Of a stretch of DNA of 64,000 nt, positions 3,510 through 50,283 are shown in pieces. The position numbers and the translations under genes were made by a program. The stretch spans positions 288,001-352,000 of the forward strand of contig CAWBBV010000007.1 of assembly GCA_963787125.1 (NCBI GenBank), read 5' to 3'. How positions within the stretch are numbered: the first letter of the stretch is position 1; each line of letters opens with the position of its first letter. The notes below the pieces were generated by a model that did no database searches, was not told the origin of the DNA, and saw only the letters and a program-made list of their open reading frames with translations. The DNA comes from an uncultured delta proteobacterium (lineage in GTDB: Bacteria; Desulfobacterota; Desulfuromonadia; Geobacterales; DSM-12255).

Positions 3510-4343
3510 ATGAAATGTCACCTTAAGGTCTGCTCAGCAACTGTGGTAATGATGATTTTTTTATTCGCCAGCACTGCAAAAGCGAATGACGGCAAAATAG
3601 TGTTCGACAAGCAGTGCGCCAGTTGCCACACCATCGGTGGTGGTGAAAGTGGCGGCCCGGATCTAATAGGGATTACAGGAAAGCGTCCCGAAGCATGGTT
3701 GGTCCGGGTAATAGTCGAACCTGATAAGCTGACTGCTGAAAAGGATCCTGTTCAAGAGGGATTGATTAAGAAGTTCGGCTTTGAGATGCCGAATATTGGA
3801 GTTAATCGGGAAGATGCAAAAAAAATAATCTCCTATTTGCAGCAGAGTGGCGCAGATGGACATACGGCAAAGAGCTCTGTTAAGGGTGCTCCGGATGTGC
3901 AGACTAAAAAAGTGACTGAAAGTGCCCCAGCCATAAAACAAGCAGAGCTCTTACTTACTCCGGAATTGATTGCTAGCGGGCGGGCTCTGTTTATCGGCGA
4001 AAAGAAGTTCTCCAAGGGTGGCGCATCATGCTCATCATGCCATGCTTTCGGAGCTCAAGGCGTTGCCAGCGGCAATCTGGCAGCAGATCTTACCAGCATA
4101 TATGACAAAATGGGTGAACAGGGGATGCGTGGGGTTCTTAAAGCGCTTAAATTCCCGATCATGAAGAAGATCTATGCTGATAAACCGTTGACGGATGAAG
4201 AGGTAACCGCTTTGGTCGCCTTTGCCAAAGATGCGGCAACAAAAAAATCTGCACCTGATGGAGGTAGTTTTCCTCTGGCAGGTATTGTTGTCTTTATCTG
4301 TGCAATTATTGCTTTAAGTCTCTACAAGAGGAGGATTGGCTAA
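3510..4343 (+). CDS. narC: Diheme c-type cytochrome, NarC-like, C-terminal membrane anchor
   Basis: Signal peptide, CASCH and CSSCH, C-terminal TM. Stop overlaps narG ATG (TAATG). ATG 3510 has a GGAGG RBS. Confidence 0.75.
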   Translation: MKCHLKVCSATVVMMIFLFASTAKANDGKIVFDKQCASCHTIGGGESGGPDLIGITGKRPEAWLVRVIVEPDKLTAEKDPVQEGLIKKFGFEMPNIGVNREDAKKIISYLQQSGADGHTAKSSVKGAPDVQTKKVTESAPAIKQAELLLTPELIASGRALFIGEKKFSKGGASCSSCHAFGAQGVASGNLAADLTSIYDKMGEQGMRGVLKALKFPIMKKIYADKPLTDEEVTALVAFAKDAATKKSAPDGGSFPLAGIVVFICAIIALSLYKRRIG

Positions 4344-30008: not shown

Positions 30009-30938
30009 TCAGAAGTCCTGGAGCTGTTTGTACTTTTTCTTGCTTTCGGTGAGCTGGGCAGAAATTTTTTCAGGAAGGACAGCTTTAAGTTCCTTGGCAC
30101 TACTCATGAACTCATCATCTGATTTTTTTACTGCAGCAGCATATATTTCGGAGGTTCCGGCAGTGGAAGTGATAGTCGAGTGAAGTTTTGAATATGATTC
30201 ATTTAGTTTAGTTAGTGCATCTCTGCTTGCGGCGAATTTTTCTGGTGCCTTGCCAACTCGCATTACCAGGGTGTTAACATCGTTAATAGCTGATTTTGAT
30301 AATTTTTGTTCGGCTGCCGTAAGGTTGGTTGATATTCCGCTCTTCATGTCTGTAGTAAGGCGACCGCTGATCTTTATTTCAAGATCACGGGCCGACTTGA
30401 TTACCCAAATAGCCCGCACATAATTTTCAGTGTATTTTGTAGCAAGCATATCCTGATACCAGTAATAACCACCACCCGCGGAAAAAATCACGATTACTGC
30501 AAGGGCCGCCGCTAACTGTGCTGGCCCCCCTGGAAGTCTGAATCCTGATATTTTTGTAGAGGCTTTGGAGGCAGAGGTGAAAGGGTCATGGTGAACATGC
30601 GTTGTGCCCCCGATTTTTATCTTGCTGAGGATGTTAAAAGAGGCCAGCAGCTTGCCAAGCTGTTTCTTGGCAGAAGACGTTGTTTCAATAACCAGAAAAT
30701 CCGGGTAAATGGCGTGGCAGCTCAGGCAATAGATTGCAGACCCTGGACGATTGCCGCATTCAGCACAGGAGATATCATCAGCCTTATAAAGAGCCCGCCT
30801 TGCAAACGATACTTTGCGGATGACAAGGTTCGCGCTGCATTCAGAACATTTATTAAATGAACCTTCAGGGGGGATGTCGGCAGAGTCAAATTCTATCTGT
30901 GCATTACATTTTGGGCATGAAGATGTCATCTTAAGCAA
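30009..30938 (-). CDS. Zinc-ribbon (MJ0042-like) membrane protein
   Basis: CPKC/CSEC and CAEC/CLSC pairs, one TM, helical C-terminal domain; start may be ATG 30929. Confidence 0.7.
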   Translation of the reverse strand: MLKMTSSCPKCNAQIEFDSADIPPEGSFNKCSECSANLVIRKVSFARRALYKADDISCAECGNRPGSAIYCLSCHAIYPDFLVIETTSSAKKQLGKLLASFNILSKIKIGGTTHVHHDPFTSASKASTKISGFRLPGGPAQLAAALAVIVIFSAGGGYYWYQDMLATKYTENYVRAIWVIKSARDLEIKISGRLTTDMKSGISTNLTAAEQKLSKSAINDVNTLVMRVGKAPEKFAASRDALTKLNESYSKLHSTITSTAGTSEIYAAAVKKSDDEFMSSAKELKAVLPEKISAQLTESKKKYKQLQDF

Positions 30939-30971: not shown

Positions 30972-31466
30972 TCAAAGCGCGTACCTGGAAGCCATGTCGC
31001 AAAAAGCGCCATCATCGGCGCGAATTATGTCATCCAGGCTGACATTATCTATTGTCGAAGGTGCTGTTACGCCATCAGGCCCTTTACTGTATAAATCAAA
31101 GTCTGAGTTCATTAGACCTGGCCCAGTGCGTTCTAAATGAGCGGTATCCCTGTATACGTATGGCGAACCCCAAGGGTCCAGCAAATCTTGTCCCCCTATC
31201 TGTTCAAGACTTTCTGGGATTTTACCCTGGTCTGTGGCAAAAGCAGATATCTCTTTTTCAAGATTACGTATTTCGGAGCGACACCTCGCAACTTTGGCCT
31301 TGTTTATAAATTCCGAAAATCCGACCATTGCCATTGTTGCAAGAACTCCAATTATTGAAACCACAATTAGCAGCTCTACAAGCGTAAAGCCACGGTTGTT
31401 TTGAGCAGTGCCTACAAAACCCAAACGCTTTAACCGTAAATTGGACGCTCCGTGATTAATTGCCAT
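30972..31466 (-). CDS. Type II secretion GspG-like pseudopilin
   Basis: G|FTLVE prepilin motif, DPWGSPYVY, FDLYSKGPDG. Confidence 0.85.
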   Translation of the reverse strand: MAINHGASNLRLKRLGFVGTAQNNRGFTLVELLIVVSIIGVLATMAMVGFSEFINKAKVARCRSEIRNLEKEISAFATDQGKIPESLEQIGGQDLLDPWGSPYVYRDTAHLERTGPGLMNSDFDLYSKGPDGVTAPSTIDNVSLDDIIRADDGAFCDMASRYAL

Positions 31467-33854: not shown

Positions 33855-33889
33855 AAGCCCACCATTCGTTGTGTGGGCTTTTTTATTTT
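33855..33889 (+). terminator. Leader terminator (riboswitch expression platform)
   Basis: AAGCCCAC...GTGGGCTT followed by a T-tract, ~35 nt before the ATG at 33923. Confidence 0.85.
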
Positions 33890-33922
33890 GTATTCAATTT
33901 TCTGTATTTTTGGGAGGAACCG

Positions 33923-36844
33923 ATGTTTCGCAGACACTCCAGAATAATCGCCGCGGTTGTTTTATCTTTCTTCACCTGGACGTCAGGCGGTGTCTTCAGC
34001 ATTGCCCATGCGGCGCAGGATGCCGTCAAAAAGTCTAATGCCCAGCCTCAGGCGAAGAAGGGCGAAGGGGCGGAGGAGCGTTTTGCCAGGCTGACAGAGG
34101 AGCTGAGTGCCGATCTCTTTGACCCGAAAACCGGTCATGTACACAAGAGGCAGCGGCTGACGGCGCGTAAGGTTGAGCTGGACTCCCTCGACACTGACAT
34201 TCGCCAGCAGTTTGCCGAAACGGAAAAGAAGCTAAAAGACGCCAAGCTGCCCGCTGAGATCCTGGCGCGGCATGCCAAATTCGTCAAACACTATGACGAC
34301 AACCTGGCTGAGTTGAAAGGGAACATGGCGCTGGTAGAGAGCGCCACCGATGCAGCGGAGACCGAAGCTGCAATCGATAAAACCCGCCAGCACCTGGAGC
34401 GGGTCAAAGCCCCCTCCCGCCACAAGAAACTCGATCCCAACAATCTTCCCCACCGGCAGCCGAAGGCGCTGAAGCGGGAGCCTCGGCTGAAGAAAGAAGA
34501 TTTCGACAAGGATCTCAAAAAAGACAAACACGCCTGGAAAAGCGCCAAGAGAATCATGGTCGCCTCGACCGGCTCCGTTGCCGGGCTGCTCCCTGCCGAT
34601 GATCTGGCCGAAACCGTTGAGGTGCAGCTAACTCCGGAGATAAAAGCCAAGGCGCTGGAGCTGGGGAACAGTCCGGTGAAGATCTACGAGTGGGTGCGGA
34701 ACAACGTCAAGTTCGTCCCCACCTGGGGCTCCATCCAGGGGGCGCAGATGACGCTTCTGACCAGGCAGGGAAACTCATTCGACACAAGTTCCCTCCTCAT
34801 CGCCCTCCTGCGGGCAGCCGGGATCAATGCCCGCTATGTTACCGGCACAGTTGAACTTCCCATTGACAATATCATGAACTGGGCCGGAGGTTTCACCGAC
34901 CCAATGGCCGCTCTCGATTTCATGTCCAGTGGCGGCATTCCCACCAAGGGACTTGTTAGCGGCGGCAAGATTGTTGCTGCCCGCTTTGAGCACGTCTCGG
35001 TTGAAGCCTTCATCGACTACATCCCCTCCAGAGGGGCGAAGCACAAGCAGGGACAAGGTGACACCTGGATACCTCTTGATCCGAGCTATAAGCAGTACAC
35101 CTTCACTCAAGGCATCGACATCAAGTCCGCCGTCCCCTTCAACGCTCAGGGGTTCCTCGACCAGATCAAGGCAACCGCCGCCATCAACGAAACCGCAGGC
35201 TACGTCACCGGTATCGACTCCCTCCTTACCCAGCAGACCATGCAGGACTACCAGGCACGGGTCCAGAGCTACATCCAGCAGAACCACGCCAACGCCACCG
35301 TCGGCGATGTCCTCGGCAAGAAAGAGATCGTCAAAAAAGAGTACCGCCATCTCCTCGGCACCCTGCCGTATCGCACCGCAGTCAAGGGAAGTACGTTTAC
35401 CACCATCCCCGACAGCCTGCGGCACAAGCTCTCCTTCAGAGTAGAGAATGAAGCAACCAACACCTTCGTTGACCCCGAAGCACCGGCACCGGTGGATAAC
35501 TCCCTCACCATAAACAAAAGCCTGGCGGAACTGGCAGGCAAGAAGATAACCCTCAGCTACTCACCGGCAACCGTACAGGACGAAGCGGTCATTAACTCCT
35601 ACCTCCCCCGGCCCCATGCAGACGGCACCCCCATACAGCCAAGCGAACTGCCAACCCAGCTCCCGGCGTACCTCATCAATGTCAAACCGGAACTCAGAAT
35701 TGACGGGCAGGTGGTAGCCACCGGAGCGCCGGTAGGCCTGGGCGGCATCAACATCTCCACCATGACCTTCTCCGACCCTGCCTACGGCTCAAGCCAGGTC
35801 ACCAACTACATTGACGCCGGGGTCTATCAGGCAATAGGGCTCAACTTGGGGAGGATCAGCGCTGAGCAGTTAACCAGTCTAAAAGCAAAACTGGAAGCTA
35901 CCAAAGCAAAGCTGCAGAACAACGACTTTGCCACCATGACCAAGGATGATCTGATGGGTGATCTCCTCTACACCACCGCCATGTTTTATCATTCCGGGCT
36001 TGACAAGATGAACAACATCATCGCTCGAACCCTGAATGTCAGTGCTATCACCCTTCCATCGGAAACCATTTTCGCCACCAAGCTCAATGTCATGATGTTT
36101 TTCGGAATACCGAGATATGTCCGGGCAGGCGGCTTGAACATGGATGCGGACTACCTCGTACAGGTGGTAAAATCTAAAGACGGCAATGTTGACACTGCCA
36201 GGCACTACATGCTCAGTAGCGGCATGACGTCATCGGCTCTGGAACATGGCGTGCCGGAACAGCTCTTTTCGACGACAGATACCCCGTTAGAGGGTGTAAG
36301 CACAATAAAAGCGCTCAAAATCGCCTCAGACCAAGGCATTCCAATTTATACAGTAAACCAGAGTAATATTGCCACCACACTGCCGCAACTGCAAATCAGT
36401 CAGCAGATAAAAGACGACATCACTAACGCAGTTAACGCAGGTAAAGTTGTCACCGTTTCTAAAACCAACATTAATTTCAACGGCTGGAATGGTTGCGGGT
36501 ACATTATTGCTAATCCGGATACCGGTGCCGGGGCGTACATGATTAGTGGTGGAACAAGCGGTGGAGATATTATTCTAATCGGTGCATTTCTAAGAAACGA
36601 TATAATTAACGCGCTGGTCAAGTATGCTCCAGAAAAAGAAGCTTTTACTCGGGCAACATCAAAACTCTTAAACGAAGGTGAACTGCTTAATGTTCTAATA
36701 GAAGTAACACAAAAAGAAGCAGCAAATGCTGCTGCACTTAGGGTATTACTTGGCTCACTTCTTGGTGCTACCGTAATTGTTTTGACTCCGTCAACATTAC
36801 AAGATCCGTATTTAGGTGCTGATGGTAATTGGTATTGGCCATAG
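33923..36844 (+). CDS. Secreted transglutaminase-fold protein, copy 1 (973 aa), variable 93-aa C-terminus
   Basis: Signal peptide ending AHA; IYEWVRNN...GNSFDTSSLLIALLRAAGINARYV...EHV...WIPLDPS; GGAGG RBS. Confidence 0.85.
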   Translation: MFRRHSRIIAAVVLSFFTWTSGGVFSIAHAAQDAVKKSNAQPQAKKGEGAEERFARLTEELSADLFDPKTGHVHKRQRLTARKVELDSLDTDIRQQFAETEKKLKDAKLPAEILARHAKFVKHYDDNLAELKGNMALVESATDAAETEAAIDKTRQHLERVKAPSRHKKLDPNNLPHRQPKALKREPRLKKEDFDKDLKKDKHAWKSAKRIMVASTGSVAGLLPADDLAETVEVQLTPEIKAKALELGNSPVKIYEWVRNNVKFVPTWGSIQGAQMTLLTRQGNSFDTSSLLIALLRAAGINARYVTGTVELPIDNIMNWAGGFTDPMAALDFMSSGGIPTKGLVSGGKIVAARFEHVSVEAFIDYIPSRGAKHKQGQGDTWIPLDPSYKQYTFTQGIDIKSAVPFNAQGFLDQIKATAAINETAGYVTGIDSLLTQQTMQDYQARVQSYIQQNHANATVGDVLGKKEIVKKEYRHLLGTLPYRTAVKGSTFTTIPDSLRHKLSFRVENEATNTFVDPEAPAPVDNSLTINKSLAELAGKKITLSYSPATVQDEAVINSYLPRPHADGTPIQPSELPTQLPAYLINVKPELRIDGQVVATGAPVGLGGINISTMTFSDPAYGSSQVTNYIDAGVYQAIGLNLGRISAEQLTSLKAKLEATKAKLQNNDFATMTKDDLMGDLLYTTAMFYHSGLDKMNNIIARTLNVSAITLPSETIFATKLNVMMFFGIPRYVRAGGLNMDADYLVQVVKSKDGNVDTARHYMLSSGMTSSALEHGVPEQLFSTTDTPLEGVSTIKALKIASDQGIPIYTVNQSNIATTLPQLQISQQIKDDITNAVNAGKVVTVSKTNINFNGWNGCGYIIANPDTGAGAYMISGGTSGGDIILIGAFLRNDIINALVKYAPEKEAFTRATSKLLNEGELLNVLIEVTQKEAANAAALRVLLGSLLGATVIVLTPSTLQDPYLGADGNWYWP

Positions 36845-36908
36845 TTGTAAAGAAGTACCAATTCCACTTAGTTACTACAAAAAATATTCAGGGACAAGGA
36901 GTCGTTAA

Positions 36909-37388
36909 ATGTTTGATATAACCAGATTGTTTGGCAAATATGCAAAACCTCACACTAGAACTAAGTTTGAAATTACTACCATTATATGTATGTCAGTATT
37001 TATGCGTAATTTTGAAGAAATTACAAACAAGCGTTCACTACAAGACATTGCAAAATTAATGCAACAGTTTTATGGGCTTATTGCAAGTGCTACTACTGAT
37101 TTTAATGCCGACATTGACAGGTTTTGCCACAACCAAGTGCTAATATATTTTAAGCATGATATTAATCACGCTGAAGATCATGCTATAAAATGCGGACATA
37201 ATATTATTAGTAACTTTCACAATTATGATGAGTCGTTAGATATCGGCGTCGGAATATGTAAAGGTGAAATTATTTATGGCATATTTGGATCTGAAACAAG
37301 AGCTACGGTAACTGGTTTTGGTCCTGTTGTTAACACTTCAATTGAACTATCTAAAAACAAAAGTGGAGTAAATAGCGTTACCCTATAA
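36909..37388 (+). CDS. AT-rich partner 1: degenerate class III adenylate/guanylate cyclase-like protein (putative immunity)
   Basis: AAGGAG RBS; DIDRF, IGVGICKGEIIYGIFGSETR, GPVVN align to the class III cyclase pattern but catalytic residues are replaced. Confidence 0.65.
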   Translation: MFDITRLFGKYAKPHTRTKFEITTIICMSVFMRNFEEITNKRSLQDIAKLMQQFYGLIASATTDFNADIDRFCHNQVLIYFKHDINHAEDHAIKCGHNIISNFHNYDESLDIGVGICKGEIIYGIFGSETRATVTGFGPVVNTSIELSKNKSGVNSVTL

Positions 37389-37478
37389 ACCGGGTCTGTA
37401 CTCTGGGGAAACGTGAAGACGTTGGTAGGTTGTCTCCTTTTTTGAAAAAGAACAAAAGCCGTTAAGTTGGAGGAACCG

Positions 37479-40400
37479 ATGTTTCGCAGACACTCAAGGA
37501 TAATCGCCGCAGTGGTACTGTCTTTCTTCACCTGGACATCAGGCGGCCTGTTCAGCGTCGCTCATGCAGCAACAGCTGCCGTGAAGAAGGCCAAGACCGA
37601 GGCTCCGGCAAAGAAGAGCGATGCGGCCGAGGAGCGGTTTGCGAAGCTGACTGAGGAACTGACAACCGAACTTCTCGACTCGAAAACGAGTCATGAGCAC
37701 AAGAAACAGCGGCTGACGTTCCGCAAGGGTGAGCTGGACACCCTTGACGCCGCCATCCGCAGCGAATTCGCTGCCACCGAGACGAAACTGAAAAACGCCA
37801 AGCTGCCGCCAGAGATCCTGACCAGACATGCCAAGTTCGTCAAACACTACGACGACAACCTTTCCGAGCTGAAGGGGAACATGGCTTTTGTTGAGAGCAC
37901 CCAGGATGCGGCTGAGGCAGAAGCAGCGCTGGAAAAGACCCGCCAGCATTTGGCAAAGGTCAAGGCACCGTCGCGGCACCAGAAACTCGATCCCAACAAC
38001 CTCCCCCATCGGCAGCCGAAGGCGATCAAGCGGGAACCGCGGCTGAAGAAGGAGGATTTCGATAAGGATCTCAAAAAAGACAATCACGCCTGGAAAAGCG
38101 CCAAGAGAATCATGGTCGCCTCGACTGGCTCCGTTGCCGGATTGCTTCCTTCAGATGACCTGGCCGAAACGATAGAAGTCCAGTTAACCCCGGAGATCAG
38201 GGCCAAAGCGCTGGAGCTGGGGAACAGTCCGGTGAAGATCTACGAGTGGGTGCGGAACAACATCGAATTTGTCCCCACCTGGGGCTCCATCCAGGGAGCC
38301 CAGATGACGCTCTTGACCAGGCAGGGGAACTCATTCGACACAAGTTCTCTACTGATAGCGCTGCTGCGGGCCGCAGGGATCAATGCCCGCTATGTTATTG
38401 GTACGGTTGAACTCCCAATTGATAAGATCATGAACTGGGCGGGCGGCTTCACCGACCCCCTGGCTGCCCTAGATTTCATGTCCAGCGGTGGCATACCCAC
38501 CAAGGGTCTGGTTGCCGGGGGCAAGATCGTAGCTGCTCGCTTTGAGCATGTCTCGATCGAAGCCTTCATCAACTACATCCCGTCCCGTGGAGCAAAGCAT
38601 ATCAATGGCAAGGGTGATACCTGGATCAAGCTTGATCCGAGCTTCAAGCAGTACAACTTCACCCAAGGCATCGACATCAAAACCGCCGTCCCCTTCGATG
38701 CACAGGCATTCCTCACCCAGCTGAAATCATCCGCCACCATCAACGAAACCGCTGGATACGTCACCGGCATCAACTCCCTCCTCACCCAACAGACCATGCA
38801 GGACTACCAGACGAGGGTGCAGAGCTACATCCAGCAGAACCATCCCAACGCTACCGTCGGCGATGTGATTGGCAAGAAAGAGATCATCAAAAAGGAATAC
38901 CGCCATCTTCTCGGCACCCTGCCGTACCGCACCGCAGTCAAGGGGGCAACTTTTACCACCATCCCCGACAGCTTGCGGCACAAGCTCTCCTTCAGGGTAG
39001 AGAACGAAGCCGCAAACACCTTCGTTGATCCTGATGCACCGGCAGCGGTGGACAACTCCCTGAGCATCACCAAAAGCCTGGCAGAACTGGCAGGCAAGAA
39101 GATAACCCTCAGCTACTCCCCGGCAACCCCTCAGGACGAAGTTATCATCAACGCCTATCTGCCAAGCCCGCATGCCGACGGCACTCCCATACAGCCAAGC
39201 GAACTCCCCAGCCAGCTACCGGCGTATCTGATCAACGTCAAACCGGAACTCAGGATTGACGGTCAGGTAGTGGCCACCGGAGCGCCGGTAGGCCTTGGCG
39301 GCACCAACATCTCCACCATGACCTTCAGCGACCCGGCTTACGGCTCAAGCCAGATAACCAACTACATTGACGCCGGGGTGTACCAGGCAATCGGGCTCAA
39401 CCTGGGGCGAATCAGCGCCGAGCAGTTAACCGGGCTCAAAGCAAAACTGGAAGCTACCAAAGCAAAACTGCAGAACAACGACTTCGCCGGCATGACCAAA
39501 GATGATCTGATCGGTGATCTCCTCTACACCACCGCCATGGCCTATCATGCCGAACTCGGCACCATGAACTACATTGCCGCAAAAACCATGAACGTCAACG
39601 CCATCACCGTACCGTCAGAAACCATCTTCGCCACCAAGCTCAAAGTAATGTGTCTTTGGGGAATACCGCGCTATATCAGTTCCGGCGGACTCAATATGGA
39701 TGCTGATTATCTGATGCAGGTAGTAAAGGCAAAAGACGGCAACAGCGAGACCGCCAAGCAGTATATGCTCTCCAGCGGCATGACTTCCTCGGCGCTGGAG
39801 CACAATGTGCCGGAGAAGCTCTTCTCCACGCCGGACAGCCCTGCCCAAGGGATCAGCACGGTCAAGGCGCTGAAGATTGCCAATGACCAGGGAATCCCGG
39901 TCTACACGGTCAATCAGGCGAACATTGCGACAGTTATGCCGCAATTGCAGGTGGATCAGCAAGTGAAGGAAGACATCCAGAACGCCGTGAATGCAGGGAA
40001 GATGGTTACTGTCTCCAAGACCAACATCAACTTCAATGGATGGAATGGGTGTGGGTATATCATTACTAATCCGGAAACCGGGGCTGGTGGGTATATGATC
40101 AGTGGGGGGTCGAATGGCGCAGTAATTCAAGCCTTGTGGCTGGCTGGTTACATTATCTTGCATATCCTTGCATTCGCAGGTGTTGCGGCATTGGCTACTT
40201 TAGGTGTTTTATCTGGTGGGTTCGGATCTGCTGTAATATTTCCTGCATTTAGTGCATTTTTAGCTGAAATGATCGCTGTAGTCAGTGCAGGGTATTTAGA
40301 ATTATGCTTATTTGTAGCTAGTGCTCCTATCATTAGGGCATTATATTCCACGGTATCGCTTTGGGCGGATATGAGCCCCCCGCCTTTGCCTTTTCCGACT

Positions 40401-40550
40401 AGTCTCGGAGATTATCAATTTTGGGTGTTCTTCTTTATGGTTCGTATTCTTCACTATTTTGAATTGAAGTGGCTATTGTCTAGAGTCATACTAGAATATA
40501 ATTGGCATATTGTTAGAAGCTATGACATTCAAAATCACATTAGATGTTAA
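37479..40550 (+). CDS. Secreted transglutaminase-fold protein, copy 2 (1023 aa), hydrophobic 143-aa C-terminus
   Basis: Paralog of 33923-36844 up to YMISGG; identical RBS/start GGAGGAACCGATGTTTCGCAGACACTC. Confidence 0.85.
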   Translation: MFRRHSRIIAAVVLSFFTWTSGGLFSVAHAATAAVKKAKTEAPAKKSDAAEERFAKLTEELTTELLDSKTSHEHKKQRLTFRKGELDTLDAAIRSEFAATETKLKNAKLPPEILTRHAKFVKHYDDNLSELKGNMAFVESTQDAAEAEAALEKTRQHLAKVKAPSRHQKLDPNNLPHRQPKAIKREPRLKKEDFDKDLKKDNHAWKSAKRIMVASTGSVAGLLPSDDLAETIEVQLTPEIRAKALELGNSPVKIYEWVRNNIEFVPTWGSIQGAQMTLLTRQGNSFDTSSLLIALLRAAGINARYVIGTVELPIDKIMNWAGGFTDPLAALDFMSSGGIPTKGLVAGGKIVAARFEHVSIEAFINYIPSRGAKHINGKGDTWIKLDPSFKQYNFTQGIDIKTAVPFDAQAFLTQLKSSATINETAGYVTGINSLLTQQTMQDYQTRVQSYIQQNHPNATVGDVIGKKEIIKKEYRHLLGTLPYRTAVKGATFTTIPDSLRHKLSFRVENEAANTFVDPDAPAAVDNSLSITKSLAELAGKKITLSYSPATPQDEVIINAYLPSPHADGTPIQPSELPSQLPAYLINVKPELRIDGQVVATGAPVGLGGTNISTMTFSDPAYGSSQITNYIDAGVYQAIGLNLGRISAEQLTGLKAKLEATKAKLQNNDFAGMTKDDLIGDLLYTTAMAYHAELGTMNYIAAKTMNVNAITVPSETIFATKLKVMCLWGIPRYISSGGLNMDADYLMQVVKAKDGNSETAKQYMLSSGMTSSALEHNVPEKLFSTPDSPAQGISTVKALKIANDQGIPVYTVNQANIATVMPQLQVDQQVKEDIQNAVNAGKMVTVSKTNINFNGWNGCGYIITNPETGAGGYMISGGSNGAVIQALWLAGYIILHILAFAGVAALATLGVLSGGFGSAVIFPAFSAFLAEMIAVVSAGYLELCLFVASAPIIRALYSTVSLWADMSPPPLPFPTSLGDYQFWVFFFMVRILHYFELKWLLSRVILEYNWHIVRSYDIQNHIRC

Positions 40551-40559
40551 GAGTAACAT

Positions 40560-41465
40560 ATGAAAACAAATCTCAAGTTAATTATTAACAAATACAATAA
40601 CTTCTTAATCGAAATTACAGGTTTTATTTCGGCAAGTCTAATTTTTTCATCTGGTATTGGCCGATATAGAGTATGTATTGCATATGCTGTATACAGTGTA
40701 ATTAAGGCAATTGGTACAATAAAATTTATTGGTAAAACCCCAGACATATTTTTATTGCCGGCTATCGCGATAGCAGTATATTTCGATTTAACAAAAGGTC
40801 CAGTACTCCCACTTTTTACCAATAACTATTTGTTGTTCGCGCTAGCAGTGTTGATCATAGTTGATTTGTTAACTAGGAAGCTAATGAAACGGATGATATC
40901 TACTATCAGCAATGGCGAATTATTTGTAGCGTGCCCTTCATGTAGTTTTGACAACAAAGAGTTAGTGGAAACCTGTAATAATTGCAATTATGACACAAGT
41001 AAAGGGTTTGGTAGATTTTATACCAATATATCATCACGTTTTATAGGCAATGAAATACCCTCAAAGCTATTTCGATTATTGAATATTGGTGAAAATGAAG
41101 AAGTTGTTTATCATAAAAAGCTTACTAGCAATCTGGTTTTTTTAAAAAACAATGAAAGAGAACTAAGAAAGCACCTGATAATAACAACAGAAAATGTGAT
41201 ATTCATTGATTATGAAGGTATTAGCTTTGGCATACCAAAAAGCTATCGTGCAAAAGATATTATTTCTTTAGATAAAATTGAATTTATAAAGTGTGAAATG
41301 AAAAACATTTTTATGGCAAATAGCCCGTTTCTCGAAATTGTAACCATTAACAAAGATTGTTATGGGATTACATTTTCATATTTTGGAAATTACAAGGAAG
41401 AAATGGGTGATATCGTCAAATTAATCACAAATTCGAATCCACAGGTTAAATCGACTCTCATCTGA
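40560..41465 (+). CDS. AT-rich partner 2: membrane protein with Zn ribbon and PH-like C-terminal domain (putative immunity)
   Basis: Starts 9 bp after the copy-2 stop; 3-4 hydrophobic segments, CPSC...CNNC, ENEEV...HLIITTENVIFI...ISLDKI. Confidence 0.65.
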   Translation: MKTNLKLIINKYNNFLIEITGFISASLIFSSGIGRYRVCIAYAVYSVIKAIGTIKFIGKTPDIFLLPAIAIAVYFDLTKGPVLPLFTNNYLLFALAVLIIVDLLTRKLMKRMISTISNGELFVACPSCSFDNKELVETCNNCNYDTSKGFGRFYTNISSRFIGNEIPSKLFRLLNIGENEEVVYHKKLTSNLVFLKNNERELRKHLIITTENVIFIDYEGISFGIPKSYRAKDIISLDKIEFIKCEMKNIFMANSPFLEIVTINKDCYGITFSYFGNYKEEMGDIVKLITNSNPQVKSTLI

Positions 41466-41553: not shown

Positions 41554-42695
41554 GTGTTTAATTGCATAAGTTAGCTATTGTATTTCTAAGCTGAGCGCCT
41601 CTGACTTCTCGTTTGCGCCAAACAAAAGGAGAAGCGGTTTCGTTGTAGCTGGCAATAAATGCTTCGATTGAATTCGTCAACTGTTCCGTGCTTGAGAAAC
41701 TGGCTCCAGATAAGGTTTTACGGCTAAGTATCCCAAACCATATTTCTACCTGATTGAGCCAACTGGCCGAGGTCGGCGTAAAGTGGAAGTGGACATTGGG
41801 ATGTAAGGCCAGCCAATCTTCATTTTTCTTGTGTGTACAGTAGTTGTCGAGAATTACATGAATATCTTCACCATCTGGAACCGTTGACACTATATCATCG
41901 AGAAACGCCTGAAAGTCCGGTCGTTTTTTAGTTACAGTTGTTTTCGACTGGATAGTTCCGGCGGCAACATCTAGTGCTGCAAATAGATTGATGACGCCAT
42001 GCCGCTTATAGGTGCTCTTCAGGCCGCGAACAATTTTACCGCTGCTTGTCTGCACATAACCGGTTGACCGCTCCAAGGCCTGTATAGATGGTTTCTCGTC
42101 AATACAGAGTACCAATGCTTTCTGTGGCGGTGCCAGGTATAAGCCGATTATGTCGGCTGACTTTACCGAGAATTCAGGATCAGTGCTGACACACCACGAA
42201 CGGTGTCGCCGCAACTGAATGCCGTTTTTACGCAGTATGCGCCAGACAACATCATCTGAGACCGCCAATGCTTTAGCCAGTGCACCGCCATCCCATGCCG
42301 CCAGACCTGCTGGCGGAGACTCTTCCAGCTTGGCGAGTATGCGCTGCCTTAACTCTAATGCTGGATATTTAGCTGGCTTGCCGGAACGGGGTTTGTCGTA
42401 TAAACCCGAAAGACCATGAGCCGCAAAGCGTTTACGCCAGATGCCCACAGTCAGCGCTTGCGTATCAAGCTCGGCTGCGACCTCATCATTGCGCTTACCG
42501 GACAGACAGTAAAGTATGATTTTAACTCGCTCCACAATGCGTATTTCTTCGGTCCGGCTTCTGCTTATGCGCTCTAGCTCTTGCACGACCTTGGGCTCAC
42601 AAGTTAGCGCTATTGCAACCCTGGGCATATGACACCTCCATCTCTAGTGGGATGGAGACAGTATAATACTTATATTAACTATTGCAACTAAACAC
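41554..42695 (-). mobile_element. IS630-family insertion sequence
   Basis: IR GTGTTTA(A/G)TTGCA..AGTTA at both ends; TA duplicated (41552-41553, 42696-42697) in a CTAG target. Confidence 0.93.
41558..42628 (-). CDS. IS630 transposase
   Basis: HTH, DKPRSGKP, CIDEKPSIQAL, ILDNYCTHK, SWLNQVEIWF. Confidence 0.96.
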   Translation of the reverse strand: MPRVAIALTCEPKVVQELERISRSRTEEIRIVERVKIILYCLSGKRNDEVAAELDTQALTVGIWRKRFAAHGLSGLYDKPRSGKPAKYPALELRQRILAKLEESPPAGLAAWDGGALAKALAVSDDVVWRILRKNGIQLRRHRSWCVSTDPEFSVKSADIIGLYLAPPQKALVLCIDEKPSIQALERSTGYVQTSSGKIVRGLKSTYKRHGVINLFAALDVAAGTIQSKTTVTKKRPDFQAFLDDIVSTVPDGEDIHVILDNYCTHKKNEDWLALHPNVHFHFTPTSASWLNQVEIWFGILSRKTLSGASFSSTEQLTNSIEAFIASYNETASPFVWRKREVRGAQLRNTIANLCN

Positions 42696-42706
42696 TAGGA
42701 GGAATT

Positions 42707-45700
42707 ATGCATAGCCGACAGCTTCTCATTCTAATAGTGATGTTTTGTTCATTGATATTCGCCATGGCGGCCCACGCCCAGCTCCCCCAGATATCCAGCG
42801 GACTCAGTTACCTTACCGCAGCCCAAAACCCTGACGGCACCTGGGAGACCAGTACTTCACCGGTCGAGACCACCGTTGTCACGGTCTCGGCCTTGGAAAC
42901 GCTCAAACTGCTGAACCAGACCGCCGGAACTGCCTATACCAGCGGCGCTGCCTGGCTACAAGGGCAAACGCCGCTTTCCGTTGATACCATTGCTGATCAG
43001 ATCCGCGTTCTTAGTCTTACCGGCAATAGCATCAATGCTCTTCTTCCTCTTATCGATCCAGCCAAAGGAGCCTGGGGCGGAGATGAAGGGTTTTTAGTCA
43101 ACATCCTCGACAGCTCCCTCGCCCTCCAGGCCCTCCACGCCGCCAACTACCCCGACCTCACCGTCATCAATAACGCCCTGGCCTACCTCACAGGAAGCCA
43201 GAACAGCGACGGTAGCTGGAGTTTCTCAACCGGCAGCGACAGCAACATTTACCTGACCGCCATCGTCTCCGCCACCCTCCAGCAGTTCCCCCAGATGACC
43301 AGCATCGCCGCCGCGGTAAACAAGGCCACGACGTATCTACTCGCCCATCAGAACAGCGACGGCGGGTTTGGCCCTTCGATAGGCTCAGGGCAATCACTTT
43401 CTACAGTCTACGAAACTGCCCTGGCCTACACCGCCCTGGCAGCTGTCGCCACCAACGAAGCGGTATTAACGAACGCTGCCAACTACCTCACTTCTACCCA
43501 AGCAACCAACGGCTCCTGGAACAACGACCCTTACTCTACGGCCCTGGCGCTGAAAGCCCTTTACCTCTCGGAAAACCGCCCATCACCACCGCCGCCGCCA
43601 CCGGCAGGGGGCAAGTTCACCGGCACGGTGGTTGACTCCATCACTCTGCAAAAGGTGGCAGGTGTAACCGTTGCCCTGGTGAGCAACAACCTGATCAATA
43701 CGGTCAGCGACAGTGGTGGGAACTTCACCCTGGCTGATGTCCCTCCCGGCGCTCAGAACGTCAACTTTTCCCTTGCCAGTTTTGCTTCGACAACCTCCGC
43801 AGCTACCGCCATTGCCGACGTTACCACGAATCTCGGCAATATTCCGATGACCTCCGCCTACACCACCGGCGCTATCAGCGGCAAGATCCTTGACCAGACA
43901 GGCAAGCCGCTGGACAATGTCGCCATCGCAGTCAGCGGCTCCTGGAGCGGCAGCGCCGTTACCGGGGCAGACGGCGCCTTTGCCTTTGCTTTTGTCACCC
44001 CCGGCGACGTCACCATCACCGCTGCTAAAACCGGTTACCAGAGCTTCAGCGGAGCGGGACGGGTCTACGCCCGCACCACCCTCTCTATCTCCCCCCGGCT
44101 GAACTCTGCCCAGTCCCAGTTAACCACCGGCAGCATTATCGGCAGAGTTATCAGCGACTTCTGGGGCTACCCGATAGACCATCTGTCGGAAGATCAAGGG
44201 GTGAGGGTCACGATTTCCGGGGGCGCATTCGTCGAGCCAGACCCGAATAACGGCGGCAAATTCGCCATCAATGGTCTTGCTCCCAACACATATCAGGTGA
44301 CAATCGGCATGAGCGGCTTTGTCAGCCAGACCTTCCGCCTGATCGTCGTCCCCGGCGTTACCTCCGATTTGGGGACGATCCGCCTGGTCGAGTCAGTAGC
44401 CACCATGACCCTTGTGGGTAAAGTCACGGATACGGCTACCGGACTGCCGATCCCCAGCGCGGAGATTGTCATCCCTGCCACCGGCCAGACCGCCCGCAGT
44501 GATTTTGCCGGGACGTATGCCATTGCTGATATCAAAACGTTCCAATTAGACCTTAAGGTTTCGGCTGTCGGCTATGTGGCGAAAACCGTTGACCTCTACC
44601 AGGTCGGCATCCATGGCTCAATATGGACCCAGACCGTGGATGTATCCCTGACAGCACAGACTACTATGGGTGATATTTCGGGCAGGGTCATTGCTGGCGA
44701 AACAGGCCAACCGTTGGCCGTAGCTACCATTACCCTGGCGGCTGCGGCAGACACAACAGTGACTACCGGTGCGGACGGCATCTTTACCATGAAAACTCTG
44801 CAGATGGGGGTGCAGCAGCTGCTGATAGCCAGCGACGGCTATGCCCCCCGGACAGTAGAGATGGTCATCTTCCCCGGCATGGTCACTACAAGCGGCGACA
44901 TTGCCCTGGCGGCGGTACCCGTCAATGGCGTTATCCGGGGGGTGGTCCGCAACGCTGAGACCGGCGCTACCCTGGCCGGAGTCCAGGTAACGGTCGACGG
45001 CAGCACGAGTTTGCAGACCGTGACGACAACCGACGGCAGCTATCTCTTCGACCCTGTTGCTCCCGGCCCCGTAACCGTCAACATGACGAAGGTCGGCTAT
45101 TACCCGGCCCGGATCAGCGCCACCCTGGCCGAAGGGGGAATGCTGGTCTTCAGTCCAGCGCTGGCCGCCGCCATGCCGGTGACAGTCTCCACGGCCCTGC
45201 AGACCGATAAGCCGGTCTATGCCAAGGGTGATACGGTCGGCTTCACCACAACCCTGATCAACCGCGAGTCCCGTGACCTGACGGCCACATTACGATCGCG
45301 CCGGACGGTTCAGTTGCCCACAAGGCTGCAGTAGTCACTACCCTTGCCTCCGACGGAGTGCGCTCACTGGAAAGCTCATACCCGCTCCCAGCCAGCCTGC
45401 AAGGGGGGATTTACACGGTCTCCGCGGAACTGTTCGACGTGGTCGGGGCCTGGATCGGCGCCGCCACGGGGAGTTTCGGCGTGGCGGTCAGCCGGATTTC
45501 CGTGACCCCCACTCTGCCGCAGATGTTCTCGACCGGCAATAACTCCCTCCTTTTCAATCTCAACAATGTTGGCGATCTGCCGGCAGCCTCCGGCAGATTC
45601 ACCCTTGCCCTCAAGGATGAGTCCGGGCTTGTAGTGGCCGCTATGGAGCAGCCCTTTACGCTTGCCCCGGGTACGGGAAAAACCGTGACCGTCAATCTTG

Positions 45701-48700
45701 CCCTGCCGACACTACCCTTCGGCGCCTACAGCCTGGTCTACAGTCAGAGCGATGAAACCCGCGACGGTGTGCCGGTAACTATTCCGCTCGTTAACGCTGT
45801 TACCATAACCGCTCTCTTCGACAACAATTCCCACCGGGTACGGGACACGGCAACCCTGAACGTAACGGTGGCAAATACCGGCCGGTTCGCCCTGGAGAGC
45901 GGCCTGCCCATCGCCGTCACTCTCCCCGCTGCCGGCTACACCGAGACCAGAAGTCTGGTTACTGTCCCGGTTAGCGGCAATACGCAGGTATTCAGCTTTA
46001 CAATCCCCGCGTCCCTCGGTTCCGGCGAGCACATTGCCAGCATCACCGCCGCCCTGCCGGGAGGTCCGGCCATCACCGCCAGCGCCAAACTGGTGATTTT
46101 CCCGGCGGCTCTCACCCTTGAGCCGTTGCCGACAAACGCCGCGGCAGGCGGCGCCGTCAGCGTACATATTGTCAATAGCGGCGGCATTGATACACAGGCC
46201 GCTTGCCGCTTGAGTCTCTACGATATGACGTCAAAGCTGATAGCGGAAAAGGTTGCCATGGAAACGGCCCTGGCCGGCGCCTCACTGCCCATAGCGCTGT
46301 CGATTCCGGCCGGCGCTGTTGACGGCAGCTACAGCCTGGTGGTGAATTACAGGAACAGCTCCACCGGGGCAGAAGAAACAGTATCCGGCCAGTTGCTCAT
46401 TACAGGTGTCAAAGGAAGTCTGCTGGTTACCACAGGAAAATCGAATTATCTGCCGACGGAGCCGATTGCCGGGCAGAGTAGCATCACAACCTCCGGCTTT
46501 CCTTTGCAGAACGGCAATCTCCACCTGCAGGTAACCAACGCCAGCGGGAGTCGGCAGCAAAGAATCTGGACAAGCCAGTTCGACTTTCAGCAGGGGGTGA
46601 GAAGCGGGCTCGATGCCTACAGCGTCCCTGGAGCAGTGTCGCTACTGTCGCTATCTGATAATTTCGATGATGGCATCCTTAATACGGACAGGTGGACGAA
46701 AATAACCGGTAACGCCGGCATGCCCCCGGCAGAGGAATCAGGATTCCTGAAAACAGAACTGCCGGGCGCTGCTACTGCCGGCAACGTGTCAGCTTTGCGC
46801 GCTGCCTATCTCTTTTCCGGAGATTTTGATATTTCTGTCGACTACTCCATCACGAAATGGAGTTCTCAATCGCATATGGGCATCATTACGTACATTGATG
46901 GCAACGAACTCCGCTGGGGTGTGTTTGCAAATAAGTCGTTTGAAACGATGTGGGCATATTACGATTGGCGTGCAGGGTTTACTGCGCCAGATAACGGCAA
47001 GTTGCGATTGAAGCGCAGCGGAAATATGTACTACTGCTATTTTTGGAATGAATCTGCCTGGACTTTGTTCACCGTATACAGGCTGCCTGCGCCGGCGGTA
47101 ACAGTTCAGTTTTGGGCAAACTCTGACACTCAAGGAAATCCCATGGAAATCCATTGGGACAACTTCACTTCAGATACGAATTTCATCTCAGCCGGAACAA
47201 TGAATTTGAAATACGATAGCGGACAATCGGATTATTGGGACAAGTTTGCGTTCGATGGCGATATCCCTACCGGCACCGGTATCAAGTTCCGGACACGCAC
47301 TGCCGAAACTGAAGCCGGTCTGGCCAGTGGTATGTGGAGCGATTACATCACCACTAGCGGTTCGCCGATCACCAACCCGAAAGGGCGCTGGATCGAAGTC
47401 GAGACTACCATGTCCACAACGGATACAACAAAAACGCCGGTTTTGCGTGATATTAGCGTAACCCAGGGGCATAACCCGGGCGAAATCTTCTGGCAGACCG
47501 ATATCCCGGTCAATCTCGATGCCGGTGCGACCACAGCGCCTGCCAGCAGCATCGACACGCTCGCTCAGCCTGGAAAATACTACCTGCAAGGCACTCTGAC
47601 AGCAGATACCGGCCAGACAACCGCCACGGCCGAGTATCCTTTTTATGTCGTTCAGGGGAATATGCTTCTAACGCTCAGCCCCGACAAGAAACTGTACAAA
47701 CCGGGCGAGACAGTTACCATAAACGGTACGATATCAAACATGGCGACAATCGAGGCGGCCAATCTTGTCTTTTCGGTAAAGGCCAAAGCCGGGACTGGTG
47801 CTGAACAAGCACTGATTGCCGACACCTTCAGCATTCCTGTCGGCAGCAGCCGTACGTTCAAAACAACTACAACCGCCGGAACTGATGGGGTTGTCGCCCT
47901 GATGGCAACGATTGCCCAGAATGGCACAACCTTGGCCGCGGTTGCCGATCAGTACGAAATCTCCAGCCCGAAAGTGGCTGCAACCCTGAGCGGGCCTGAC
48001 AACGCCGGTACTGAGCCGATCACCTTGACGCTCACCCTCGCCAACAGCGGCAAGACCGATGCCTTGATTACCGTCACCAAATCGTTCAACTCCCCGCCAG
48101 AGACGCTAACCATCTCTGCCGGGCAGACAAGGTTACTCCAATACCCCCAACAACTCACCGCCGATTCGAACTATGCCTTCACCCTGTCCGGCGATCTGGC
48201 GCTGCAACTGACGAAGACGGTTGTTTATCTCGCCCCCAAGCAGGCAGCCAAGGTGAGCGTAAAAGCAGTTACTGACAAAATCTCCTATAACGCCATCGAG
48301 AAAGTTGCCATTACCACCACAATAAACTGCCTTAACGCCGGAACAACAGGTGACACTCTTAAGGCAACAGTGATGATAGTCAACAGCGGTGGAGAAGAGC
48401 TCTTCACCGACCAATTCATACTGTCAGCTCCTGATACAGGGAGAATCTACACTGACAGCAGATACTGGAACAGTGCCGCCTATCCGCCGGGCGTCTATGT
48501 CGCCAGAGTGACGGTGGAAAGTGGCGGGGCGGTACTGGCTACCAGCGAAGCGACGTTTACAGTTCTCTCTTCATCCGTGAGCGGAGCAGGAGTTGCAGGG
48601 GCTGTCTCTCCCGCTATGAACGCTGTTTACCTCGGCATTGACGAATCTCTTGCCATTACTGTGAAGAGCAGCGGCAATGAGGATCTGGCTGCGGCTCTCC

Positions 48701-50283
48701 TAGCTGTAACAGTGATCAATCCCGATACTCAGGCAATCATGCAGTCCTACAGCAAGATGATTACCCTTCCCCGCCAAGGGACCTTTACCGACACCGTTAT
48801 TGTGCCGACAGCAGCCTTTGCGGCGCGGGATTATCTGGCCATCCTGCAGATAACACTCCCCGGCATGGCTCAGGCCAAGACCATTGCCGGTACTCCTTTT
48901 AGCGTGAAGATTGCGCCGCCGCCCACGCTGCTTATCTCCACCCTGTCAGACGGCGCCGTGACCAATAACCAGACATTGAACATTACCGGTTCCGCGACAG
49001 GGGTAGTCGCCATAAGGTCGCTCACGATCAACACAACCGACGTGCCGCTCAATAGTGACGGCAGTTTCAGTCATGCGCTGCTGCTGCAAACGGGAGACTA
49101 TGTCGTGTCAACCATAGTCACTGACATCCTGGGGCACACTGCCACCGACAGCCGCACCATCACCCTCGACCAGCTGGCTCCAACCCTGACCATAGATTCC
49201 CCGGCGGACAACAGCACAACTGCCGTTTCTCCCATTGAAGTCAAGGGGAGAGTGGACGAGACCTCCACGGTAACTGTCACGGTAAAGGAGAGCGGCCAAA
49301 CTCTCATCATGAACGGCAAGGACTTTTCGGCCACGGTGTTGCCATTGCCAAGATGGAATACCATCGAAATAACCGCAACAGACTTGGCAGGCAATACTAG
49401 CAGCCAGAAGCGGAGCGTGCTGTTCGACGACCAGAAGCCGTCTCTGGCAATAACCGCACCGGATCAGGATATCCGCACCAATAAAAGCAGCCTGACGCTC
49501 AGCGGCAAAGCTTCCGATCCTTACACCGCCGTTGGCGTTACCGTTGCCATGGACGGCAGTGTGCTGGCTCCGGCGGTGATAGACGGTATTTTCTCCCAGA
49601 TTGTCAACTTTACAGACGAAAAACTCTACCCGATAACCGTTACCGCCAGCAATGAGGTGGGAACGCAGACCACTGTGCAGAGGAATGTCATCTTTGACAA
49701 AACCCCGCCGAACCTGACCATTGACCCGGTTGTTACGCCGACGAACGGCTCAGCCCAGACTATAAGCGGCACCAGGGAAAACGGGATAGCAGTAACCGTT
49801 AGCTGCGCTACCGCCACAGTCGGCGCAGTGGAGTATCCGGCCGGCACTACCTGGCGTGCCGCCATCAGCGGCCTTGCGCAGGGGGAGAACCGTTTGCTGG
49901 CTGAGGCATACGACCTGGCAGGCAACAAGACAACAGCCGTCGCCACGATTCTTTATGTGCCGAAAACGCCGGATGTGTTCATCAGCGCTTCCCGGCAGAC
50001 TCTCTGGCCGCCGAACAAAAAGCTGGTGCCGGTAGTCATTAGCGGAAATGTGGCGACCTTTGGCTCTGACATAAAAGATGTGACCATCTCCGTTGCCGAT
50101 GAATACGGGAAATACAATCTGCAGGGGCTCAAATTCGGCGATACGGTGCTGCTGGAGGCGTGGCGGGAAGGGAGCGACATGGACGGCAGGGTCTACACCA
50201 TTACTGCGGTGGTGACGGATCAGGCTGGAAACAGGGCAACGAAGTCAGCTACGGTTATTGTGCCGCACGATATGGGGAAATAG
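42707..50283 (+). pseudogene. Giant secreted protein (~2500 aa): QW-repeat alpha/alpha barrel, carboxypeptidase-regulatory-like repeats, macroglobulin-like/Ig domains, lectin-like insert; frameshift near 45290
   Basis: ORFs 42707-45334 and 45358-50283 are in different frames. The downstream frame is open from 45277 and continues the same Ig domain. No RBS at 45358. Could be a sequence error or two genes. Confidence 0.7.

Follow-up and report, generated by a model that had tools for sequence, protein, structure and literature searches.

Two neighbouring genes of a Geobacterales genome and their relatives probably form a polymorphic toxin family without RHS repeats

Two co-oriented genes with a common body and different tips

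We analysed a stretch of 64,000 nucleotides (nt), hereafter the window, from an uncultured delta proteobacterium of the Geobacterales (assembly GCA_963787125.1, contig CAWBBV010000007.1, positions 288,001 to 352,000). Two co-oriented long open reading frames (ORFs), listed at 33869-36844 and 37467-40550, encode related proteins, each made up of a constant body and a variable C-terminal tip that meet at a sharp junction. A small gene, here called the partner, follows each of them. The ATGs at 33923 and 37479 (MFRRHSRIIAAVVL...) are the likely true starts, rather than the upstream TTGs chosen by the ORF finder, and a GGAGG precedes the copy 2 ATG at 37479.

All of these elements lie on the plus strand. 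The copy 1 constant body (33923-36562) comprises a signal-peptide-like N-terminus, a coiled coil, a transglutaminase-like core without the catalytic Cys, beta-rich domains and a junction domain. Its final constant residues, placed by protein and DNA alignments, form the junction motif PDTGAGAYMISGGTSG (36515-36562). The tip behind it (36563-36844) has 93 residues plus a stop codon and one hydrophobic segment. The copy 1 partner gene (36909-37388) encodes a soluble protein of 159 residues that resembles class III nucleotidyl cyclases, and a possible immunity role is suggested solely by its position. Copy 2 repeats this layout, with a constant body at 37479-40118 (from protein and DNA alignments and the structure model), the junction motif PETGAGGYMISGGSNG at 40071-40118 (from the alignments), and a hydrophobic, helical tip of 143 residues plus a stop codon at 40119-40550. 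Its partner gene (40560-41465) encodes 301 residues and is a putative cognate immunity protein, with N-terminal membrane segments bearing a GIGRYR motif, a CPxC...CxxC zinc ribbon and a C-terminal domain resembling pleckstrin homology (PH) domains.

The junction is fixed across the family

The two proteins share 743 of 886 residues (84%) in a gap-free BLASTP alignment that ends at ...YMISGGTSGGDI in copy 1 and ...YMISGGSNGAVI in copy 2; beyond these residues nothing aligns. At the DNA level, blastn homology runs from 33913 to 36552 against 37469 to 40108 at 81% identity. Against three further copies on contig C16 of the same genome, DNA homology stops at 36552-36574 and 40117. When the five copies are aligned and positions are counted from the last constant codon, mean pairwise identity is 0.86 from -99 to -40, 0.67 from -39 to +11 and 0.28 past +11. 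That codon encodes the Gly of GG-x-S/N-G and lies at 36560-36562 in copy 1 and at 40116-40118 in copy 2. A first-pass annotation of the sequence had put the end of homology at about 36562 and 40118, which is right within a codon.

To follow the junction through homologues, residues 640-991 of copy 1 were used as query. Of the 421 proteins that matched, the best 120 were listed, and all counts out of 97 or 98 homologues below draw on these. The 98-row alignment consists of 96 listed matches of at least 930 residues and the two window proteins; 24 shorter or self rows were excluded. Most listed matches cover 73-76% of the query and thus stop at the junction. Column identity in the 98 homologues is 0.8-1.0 through GW-x-GCGY...P-x-TGAGAYMISGG, and the final Gly of GG-x-(N/S)-G (G884) is present in 97/97, after which identity falls to 0.1-0.2. 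The two Gly residues of ISGG are kept in 88 and 92 of the 97. Consistent with this, tblastn matches in loci taken from genome contigs mostly stop at query residue 885-887. The breakpoint is fixed across the family, and the gradual divergence that the first-pass annotation had named as the opposite outcome was not seen.

Base composition changes at the same place. For copy 1 and copy 2, respectively, GC content is 0.55 and 0.56 in the body, 0.39 and 0.40 in the tip, and 0.33 and 0.31 in the partner, while GC content at third codon positions (GC3) is 0.68 and 0.71, 0.20 and 0.33, and 0.25 and 0.29. Because GC3 falls at synonymous sites, hydrophobic residue content cannot be the whole cause of the shift. 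The AT-rich shift that had been noted near the junction and through the partner gene is therefore present in both measures, and the hand counts given with it (36/60 GC for the line at 35161, 13/60 for that at 40561) are exact. One sediment DNA run held about one-fifth of the words of the sequence; its short contigs cover scattered parts, and one of 151 nt spans the copy 2 junction with no differences. No RNA run was listed as a holder of the sequence.

Tips and partners change together

The tips have a median length of 126 residues and a mean grand average of hydropathy (GRAVY) of +0.99, compared with -0.30 for the bodies, and a hydrophobic segment begins within five residues of the junction in 60 of 97. 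BLAST clustering sorted the tips of the 97 proteins into 27 classes. That of copy 2 is the largest (17/97), giving this tip relatives in 16 other proteins. The copy 1 tip is a class of its own, and a word-based search with it found itself only. A search of 1.84 billion representatives with the copy 2 tip gave three matches, a result that says little because tips are hidden inside clusters formed on the body. The genome under study carries five copies with five different hydrophobic tips, each followed by a small AT-rich gene. Three of these five tips have two to four hydrophobic segments (two in copy 2), and the copy 1 tip has one.

We then considered tips and partners at the level of genome loci. 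A profile of the last 125 constant residues located 83 junctions in 72 genome loci and the two own loci; loci L043 and L065 overlap, and one junction is thereby counted twice. ORFs of at least 60 residues starting -40 to +500 nt from the stop codon were taken as partners. Complete open tips follow 82 of the 83 junctions and a downstream ORF follows 80. Among the 78 junctions that have both a tip and a partner, or 3003 pairs, 66 pairs share the tip class, 35 the partner class and 22 both (20 once the duplicate is removed). In 2000 shuffles, sharing of both classes averaged 0.8 and reached 5 at most. A tip of the copy 2 (P0002) type is followed by a partner of the copy 2 (P0004) type in L016 and L036, where the bodies are 63% and 51% identical to copy 2. 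The copy 2 partner has eight relatives, down to 34% identity, in which its invariant motifs are kept.

The bodies do not predict the tips. On a body tree (FastTree, residues 230-884) tip class changes 64 times. As few as 26 changes would be possible, and 500 shuffles required 73.4 on average and never fewer than 65. Tip class is thus nearly independent of body phylogeny. Unrelated tips occur on bodies that are 93-94% identical, and related tips on bodies that are 59-62% identical. GC3 is lower than in the body for tips at 74 of 77 junctions and for partners at 71 of 77.

Hydrophobic segments are present in 72 of 79 partners. Fourteen tips are not hydrophobic; ten of these are paired with partners that have a single N-terminal hydrophobic segment, two resemble phospholipase A2 (PLA2) and have polytopic partners, and two are truncated. 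Beta-propeller repeats were matched in four of the ten single-segment partners, with only the PD40 match of L079 above the cut-off, and weak beta-propeller matches are also found in the partners of L049 and L058, whose tips are not of the NlpC/P60 type. Partner type follows tip type, as it should if each partner guards the compartment where its tip is active.

The domain assignments of the two window partners are leads at most. For the copy 1 partner, the Pfam match to Guanylate_cyc (E 0.028) is below the cut-off and the Atlas value is 0.95; a minimal class III nucleotidyl cyclase domain (36909-37388) would be an unusual immunity fold. The copy 1 tip and partner may be regarded as a cassette by position and composition only, and of the modules considered here their function is the least certain. 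For P0004 the Atlas value is below 0.8, and the reading as zinc ribbon plus bacterial PH domain is likewise a lead only.

Modules also occur apart from full-length genes. Orphan modules are present in L042, L057, L027, L023, L036 and L079, where short frames that come after a full gene or the contig start retain only 102-251 constant residues ahead of the junction, tip and partner. No orphan module was found in the window. Two entries of the protein library (P0126/P0127) are of a similar kind: a protein of 319 residues in which a P0002-type tip follows some 186 constant residues, and a stand-alone tip of 139 residues. On its downstream side the slot is bounded by a conserved gene, located in the window at 42707-45334 on the plus strand, that encodes a secreted protein with an alpha/alpha-toroid and CarboxypepD_reg repeats. 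The gene marks the 3' constant flank and is present in both own loci and in 39 of the 73 loci, among which many are truncated.

Relatives carry recognizable payloads behind the same junction

Pfam places NlpC/P60 or CHAP domains behind the same junction in six tips, those of L037 (E 2.8e-14), L079 (1.5e-13), L045 (3.1e-10), L047, L068 and L030. The first five pass the NlpC/P60 cut-off; L030 passes it marginally, with CHAP just below its own. Prokaryotic PLA2 and Tox-ART-HYD1 were each matched in two further tips at sub-threshold scores. In L052 the junction is followed by PKD, PASTA, DUF6531 and 14 RHS repeats. Open frames of 1700-3500 residues in the order to which the window's genome belongs contain the junction domain as well. 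In two of them, L082 (G063:C17, 3481 residues) and L083 (G124:C1, 2744 residues), the same body runs on into PKD, PASTA, DUF6531 and RHS repeats. One of these two RHS forms has a near-identical N-terminus (MFRKHSRIIAAIVVCFFTWTSGG...) and the same downstream neighbour. The junction hairpin of L082 and L083 is kept in degenerate form (YTNLSG, WMLSGQ), with Val or Ile in place of its Cys.

A separate class of tips of about 210 residues (L010_1887, L031, L071_11707, L076 and L078) has the variant junction P-V-D-G-T-G-A-Y-R-I-S-G-G-L-N-G. Weak Tox-ART-HYD1 matches occur in two of the five tips (L031 and L076), all five partners are soluble, and those of L071 and L078 show weak ARM/HEAT-like matches. 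This class may be a payload type that acts in the cytoplasm.

Of 151 genomes of the order, 29, belonging to 17 of 35 genera, give between one and nine matches each to the junction domain. The family is also present in Nitrospirota, Syntrophia-type and a few other lineages. Such a patchy, multi-copy distribution is typical of accessory conflict genes.

The body carries a transglutaminase-like domain without its nucleophile

Both copies begin with a hydrophobic, signal-peptide-like N-terminus. The sole Pfam match at E <= 0.1 in either protein (P0001 and P0002) is Transglut_core, at residues 240-391 of the copy 2 frame. In the phmmer alignment, the Cys of the GVCRDFA motif of 3isr falls on Ser289. 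This column is occupied by Ala in 78, Asp in 12, Ser in 7 and Val in 1 of the 98 homologues, and His361 is retained in 96 and Asp390 in all 98. As the catalytic position is never Cys, the domain is transglutaminase-like but lacks the nucleophile. Twenty of the 98 homologues have a Cys two residues before the lost catalytic position (287 of the copy 2 frame; Q-C-N-A-F-D). NCBIfam gave no match for the two proteins or for five partners.

An AlphaFold2 model built on the 98-row alignment has a mean predicted local distance difference test score (pLDDT) of 77.8, and most blocks lie at 80-96 up to about residue 880. The junction is modelled as a beta-hairpin (strands 863-867 and 874-878), followed by coil and then by long helices at a pLDDT of about 45; the copy 2 tip appears as four such helices. 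With the full model, Foldseek recognized the transglutaminase core alone in the PDB (3isr, E 1.2e-3). The junction domain taken by itself (pLDDT 90.2) has no clear structural relative, the best Foldseek E-value being 0.036 and the best VIA-align Z being 6.9, to helical proteins; these comparisons thus point to no particular autoprotease fold. No match to the YMISGG-x-(N/S)-G hairpin and linker came out of the Pfam scans.

The conserved Cys of GW-x-GCGY was considered as a catalyst of self-cleavage. In 3 of the 97 members with normal tips it is replaced by Val, and the RHS forms have Val or Ile there; a Cys-based reaction, and with it self-cleavage of this kind at the hairpin, is therefore unlikely.

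The N-terminal region (33923-34010 and 37479-37566) is unusually conserved for a signal peptide, with FFTWTSGG and AHAA kept at 90% or more in the 98 homologues. The same region is almost identical in the 2744-residue RHS form, and it also holds an S-G-G like that of the junction. This conservation hints at recognition by a dedicated factor.

Interpretation

Taken together, we think that these genes probably belong to a polymorphic toxin/immunity family without RHS repeats, the tips of which are, in this genome, hydrophobic and probably act on membranes. The first-pass annotation had likened tip and partner to a swappable cassette of the kind found behind DPxG in Rhs or VENN in CdiA. That they behave as such a cassette behind a fixed junction is supported by the invariant break, the co-variation of tip and partner, the independence from the body tree, the shared low GC3, the orphan modules and the toxin domains in relatives. 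As far as sequence can tell, these would be polymorphic toxins headed by a dead transglutaminase domain, and their junction and largely hydrophobic payloads appear to be new and undescribed.

In the mechanism that we propose, a constant body of about 880 residues would be exported by Sec, with a signal peptide, a coiled coil, the transglutaminase-like domain without Cys and family-specific beta and helical domains. The body would end in the beta-hairpin and glycine linker GW-x-GCGY...P-x-TGAGAYMISGG-x-(N/S)-G, with an interchangeable effector tip joined on behind it, and the gene that follows would encode the tip's cognate protective partner. New cassettes may enter by recombination in which the constant region before the junction serves as one flank and the conserved downstream gene as the other, and old modules would be displaced downstream. 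Flanks of this kind fit homologous recombination. The hydrophobic tips of this genome would insert into and disturb the inner membrane of a target cell, and membrane-embedded partners would neutralize them inside the membrane.

Several points weigh against this reading. A Sec substrate with hydrophobic helices at its C-terminus would normally be halted in transfer and left anchored in the inner membrane of the producer; such helices fit an anchor as well as a toxin. No type V, type VI or type VII secretion system (T5SS, T6SS, T7SS) machinery was seen in the window. Neither window tip nor either partner matches a toxin or immunity family in Pfam or NCBIfam, and toxicity is deduced from position and from relatives, where the PLA2, ART-HYD1 and SLT matches are all below the Pfam cut-offs. 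The tip model is of low confidence. No relative of the copy 1 tip turned up in the proteins searched, and the soluble, cyclase-like protein paired with it departs from the pattern of hydrophobic tip and membrane partner. Two of the counted partners are not partners, namely a transposase after copy C of L008 and the downstream gene after the second junction of L079. The tip classes are BLAST clusters and the hydrophobic segments are defined by a Kyte-Doolittle threshold. Finally, the co-variation and tree counts come from related, non-independent genomes and are descriptive rather than probabilities.

The first of these points leads to an alternative that we consider unlikely. The tips could be polytopic anchors that hold a periplasmic or surface transglutaminase-like protein in the producer's inner membrane, with the partner as a pairing membrane subunit; the variability would then serve allele-specific pairing, as in self-recognition by IdsD/IdsE, or assembly specificity among paralogues. 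The early onset and hydropathy of the tips (60 of 97, mean GRAVY +0.99) and the 72 of 79 partners that are membrane proteins fit this idea, as does the expectation that Sec export would put such helices in the producer's membrane and the fact that the window tips match no toxin family. The five paralogues in one genome, each with its own partner, would also fit it. However, NlpC/P60 domains and whole RHS toxins stand behind the same junction in relatives, and the orphans with a truncated body fit displaced toxin/immunity pairs, not anchors. Low GC3 and a patchy occurrence are signs of accessory modules that are exchanged, and a plain anchor would need no cognate partner gene.

A bolder version of the toxin hypothesis is that the Sec-exported, dead-transglutaminase body presents short polytopic, membrane-inserting tips as part of an undescribed envelope-toxin delivery family that extends across Desulfuromonadia, Nitrospirota and other anaerobe-rich lineages. 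It would be a new way for bacteria to intoxicate one another, independent of T5SS, T6SS and T7SS. Here the hairpin would be the self-processing or release site, the alpha/alpha-toroid and CarboxypepD_reg protein the export or presentation partner, and immunity would be intramembrane. We hold this reading to be doubtful.

It is very improbable that the variable ends are remnants of frameshift, insertion-sequence damage or fast divergence of the tail, with the downstream ORFs as chance AT-rich frames. Insertion sequences do adjoin the cassettes, the copy 1 tip and partner lack relatives, and AT-rich DNA yields fewer GC-rich stop-free artefacts and many short ORFs. Against this stand the 16 other proteins with relatives of the copy 2 tip, the eight relatives of its partner with invariant motifs, the break at the same residue in 97/97 homologues, and the narrow range of tip lengths around the median of 126 residues with 82 of 83 tips as complete open frames. 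For copy 2, decay is already contradicted.

The first-pass annotation had also noted that the I-S-G-G end resembles double-glycine processing sites and may be a cleavage point. Least credible is the reading in which the junction is such a site, at which a dedicated Gly-Gly peptidase or exporter frees a bacteriocin-like hydrophobic peptide: the motif and its conservation (88 and 92 of 97, with the next Gly in 97/97) and the size and composition of the freed pieces, which would match hydrophobic bacteriocins, are in its favour, but double-glycine leaders, as PMC3482391 also states, are short N-terminal peptides cut by the C39 domains of ABC exporters, whereas the motif here lies at residues 877-881 of a 1027-residue frame behind a Sec-type N-terminus, the window has no C39 peptidase or ABC exporter gene, the single C39 of the genome is an unlinked 256-residue frame on contig C1, and the RHS forms simply continue from a degenerate motif into more domains.

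Comparison with known systems

The polymorphic toxin/immunity reading has precedents. Inactive transglutaminase domains behind a signal peptide have been described in Sec-type polymorphic toxins by Zhang et al. 2012 (PMC3482391); in the examples given there, RHS repeats come after the transglutaminase domain and an anchoring role is proposed for it. The window proteins resemble these toxins in the signal peptide, the transglutaminase domain without its catalytic residue, the variable C-termini and the immunity-like gene downstream, and L052, L082 and L083 show that relatives with the same body run into RHS repeats. They differ from the forms presented there in having no RHS_repeat match, in joining the tip directly through the YMISGG-x-(N/S)-G hairpin and linker, and in the usual payload, a short hydrophobic tip rather than an enzyme. 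Of the general features of polymorphic toxins set out in that paper, a C-terminal switch at a fixed point, a co-changing downstream gene and, in relatives, orphan cassettes are found here. Geobacter is not mentioned in the portion of the text of PMC3482391 covered.

For the payloads, the closest functional parallel appears to be the ionophore group of contact-dependent growth inhibition (CDI). Halvorsen et al. 2024 (PMC11630599) describe polymorphic helical membrane-spanning CdiA-CT ionophores that, as here, stand behind a fixed junction, with highly polymorphic cognate membrane CdiI proteins. Next to the five-helix bundle of these CDI toxins, the copy 2 tip has four long helices in a low-confidence model and a partner with hydrophobic segments. 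CdiA is exported by a two-partner secretion (TPS) route, a T5SS, and has a VENN junction motif. Unlike CdiA, the window genes gave no TPS domain, haemagglutinin repeats, VENN domain or CdiB neighbour in the Pfam scan. With Rhs toxins the family shares the constant body, the sharp junction, AT-rich tip and immunity cassettes and orphans that keep a constant stub; in contrast to Rhs, the window genes have neither the RHS cage nor the DPxGL aspartyl autoprotease motif. Tae/Tai pairs are T6SS peptidoglycan amidase effectors with periplasmic immunity proteins. The similarity to these is confined to relatives, in which NlpC/P60 tips with partners that bear one N-terminal hydrophobic segment suggest a toxin that acts on the envelope and immunity in the same compartment, and no T6SS parts were seen in the window.

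In the literature searched, supplements apart, we found no description of the RHS-less family or its junction. Within the covered text of the preprint by Nachmias et al., again apart from the supplements, the words transglutaminase, Geobacter, transmembrane and Desulfuromonas do not occur.

Most known polymorphic toxins come from Proteobacteria, Firmicutes and Bacteroidetes, and most have enzymatic payloads on Rhs, CdiA or LXG carriers. To our knowledge, antagonism among metal-reducing and sediment bacteria has been little studied. The present family is frequent in such bacteria (Geobacterales, Desulfuromonadales and Nitrospirota) and its carrier is compact, lacks RHS repeats and ends at a very sharp junction. 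Should the tips be toxic, they would amount to dozens of new small membrane-active modules with matching neutralizers. They would also make it possible to study, in a well-defined setting, how a hydrophobic toxin exported by Sec spares the producer's membrane and reaches a neighbour. The conserved junction gives a search handle for more tips and partners.

Flanking genes and mobile elements

Downstream of the copy 2 cassette, an IS630-type DDE transposase with DDE_3 and HTH domains (41558-42628, minus strand) lies before the conserved downstream gene and occupies the slot in which other genomes have orphan modules. Beyond that gene, a large protein with Ig-like and MG2 domains (45358-50283, plus strand) is next in the conserved neighbourhood; it is present in 6 of 73 loci, most of which end before it. 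Upstream, on the minus strand, are genes for a 309-residue protein with an MJ0042-type zinc finger (30009-30938) and a type II secretion pseudopilin-like protein (30972-31466). Because pseudopilin homologues occur in just 2 of 73 related loci, these are probably unrelated to the family. A consensus scan for promoters and terminators gave counts not above those of shuffled sequence.

The three further family copies of this genome form a second array (L008, G000:C16:28001-48000, minus strand). An IS3-type element, with ORFs at L008 11129-11437 and 11434-12270, interrupts one of them, and in another a DDE_Tnp_1_4 transposase (3759-5144) separates the tip from a 146-residue membrane ORF that is probably its partner. 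This array, too, is followed by the alpha/alpha-toroid and CarboxypepD_reg gene. Elsewhere in the genome (L009 5823-6113, G000:C4) is a remnant of 97 constant-region residues, 82% identical to residues 698-794 of copy 2, surrounded by an IS110-type transposase, a REP-associated Y1-type transposase and a group II intron reverse transcriptase.

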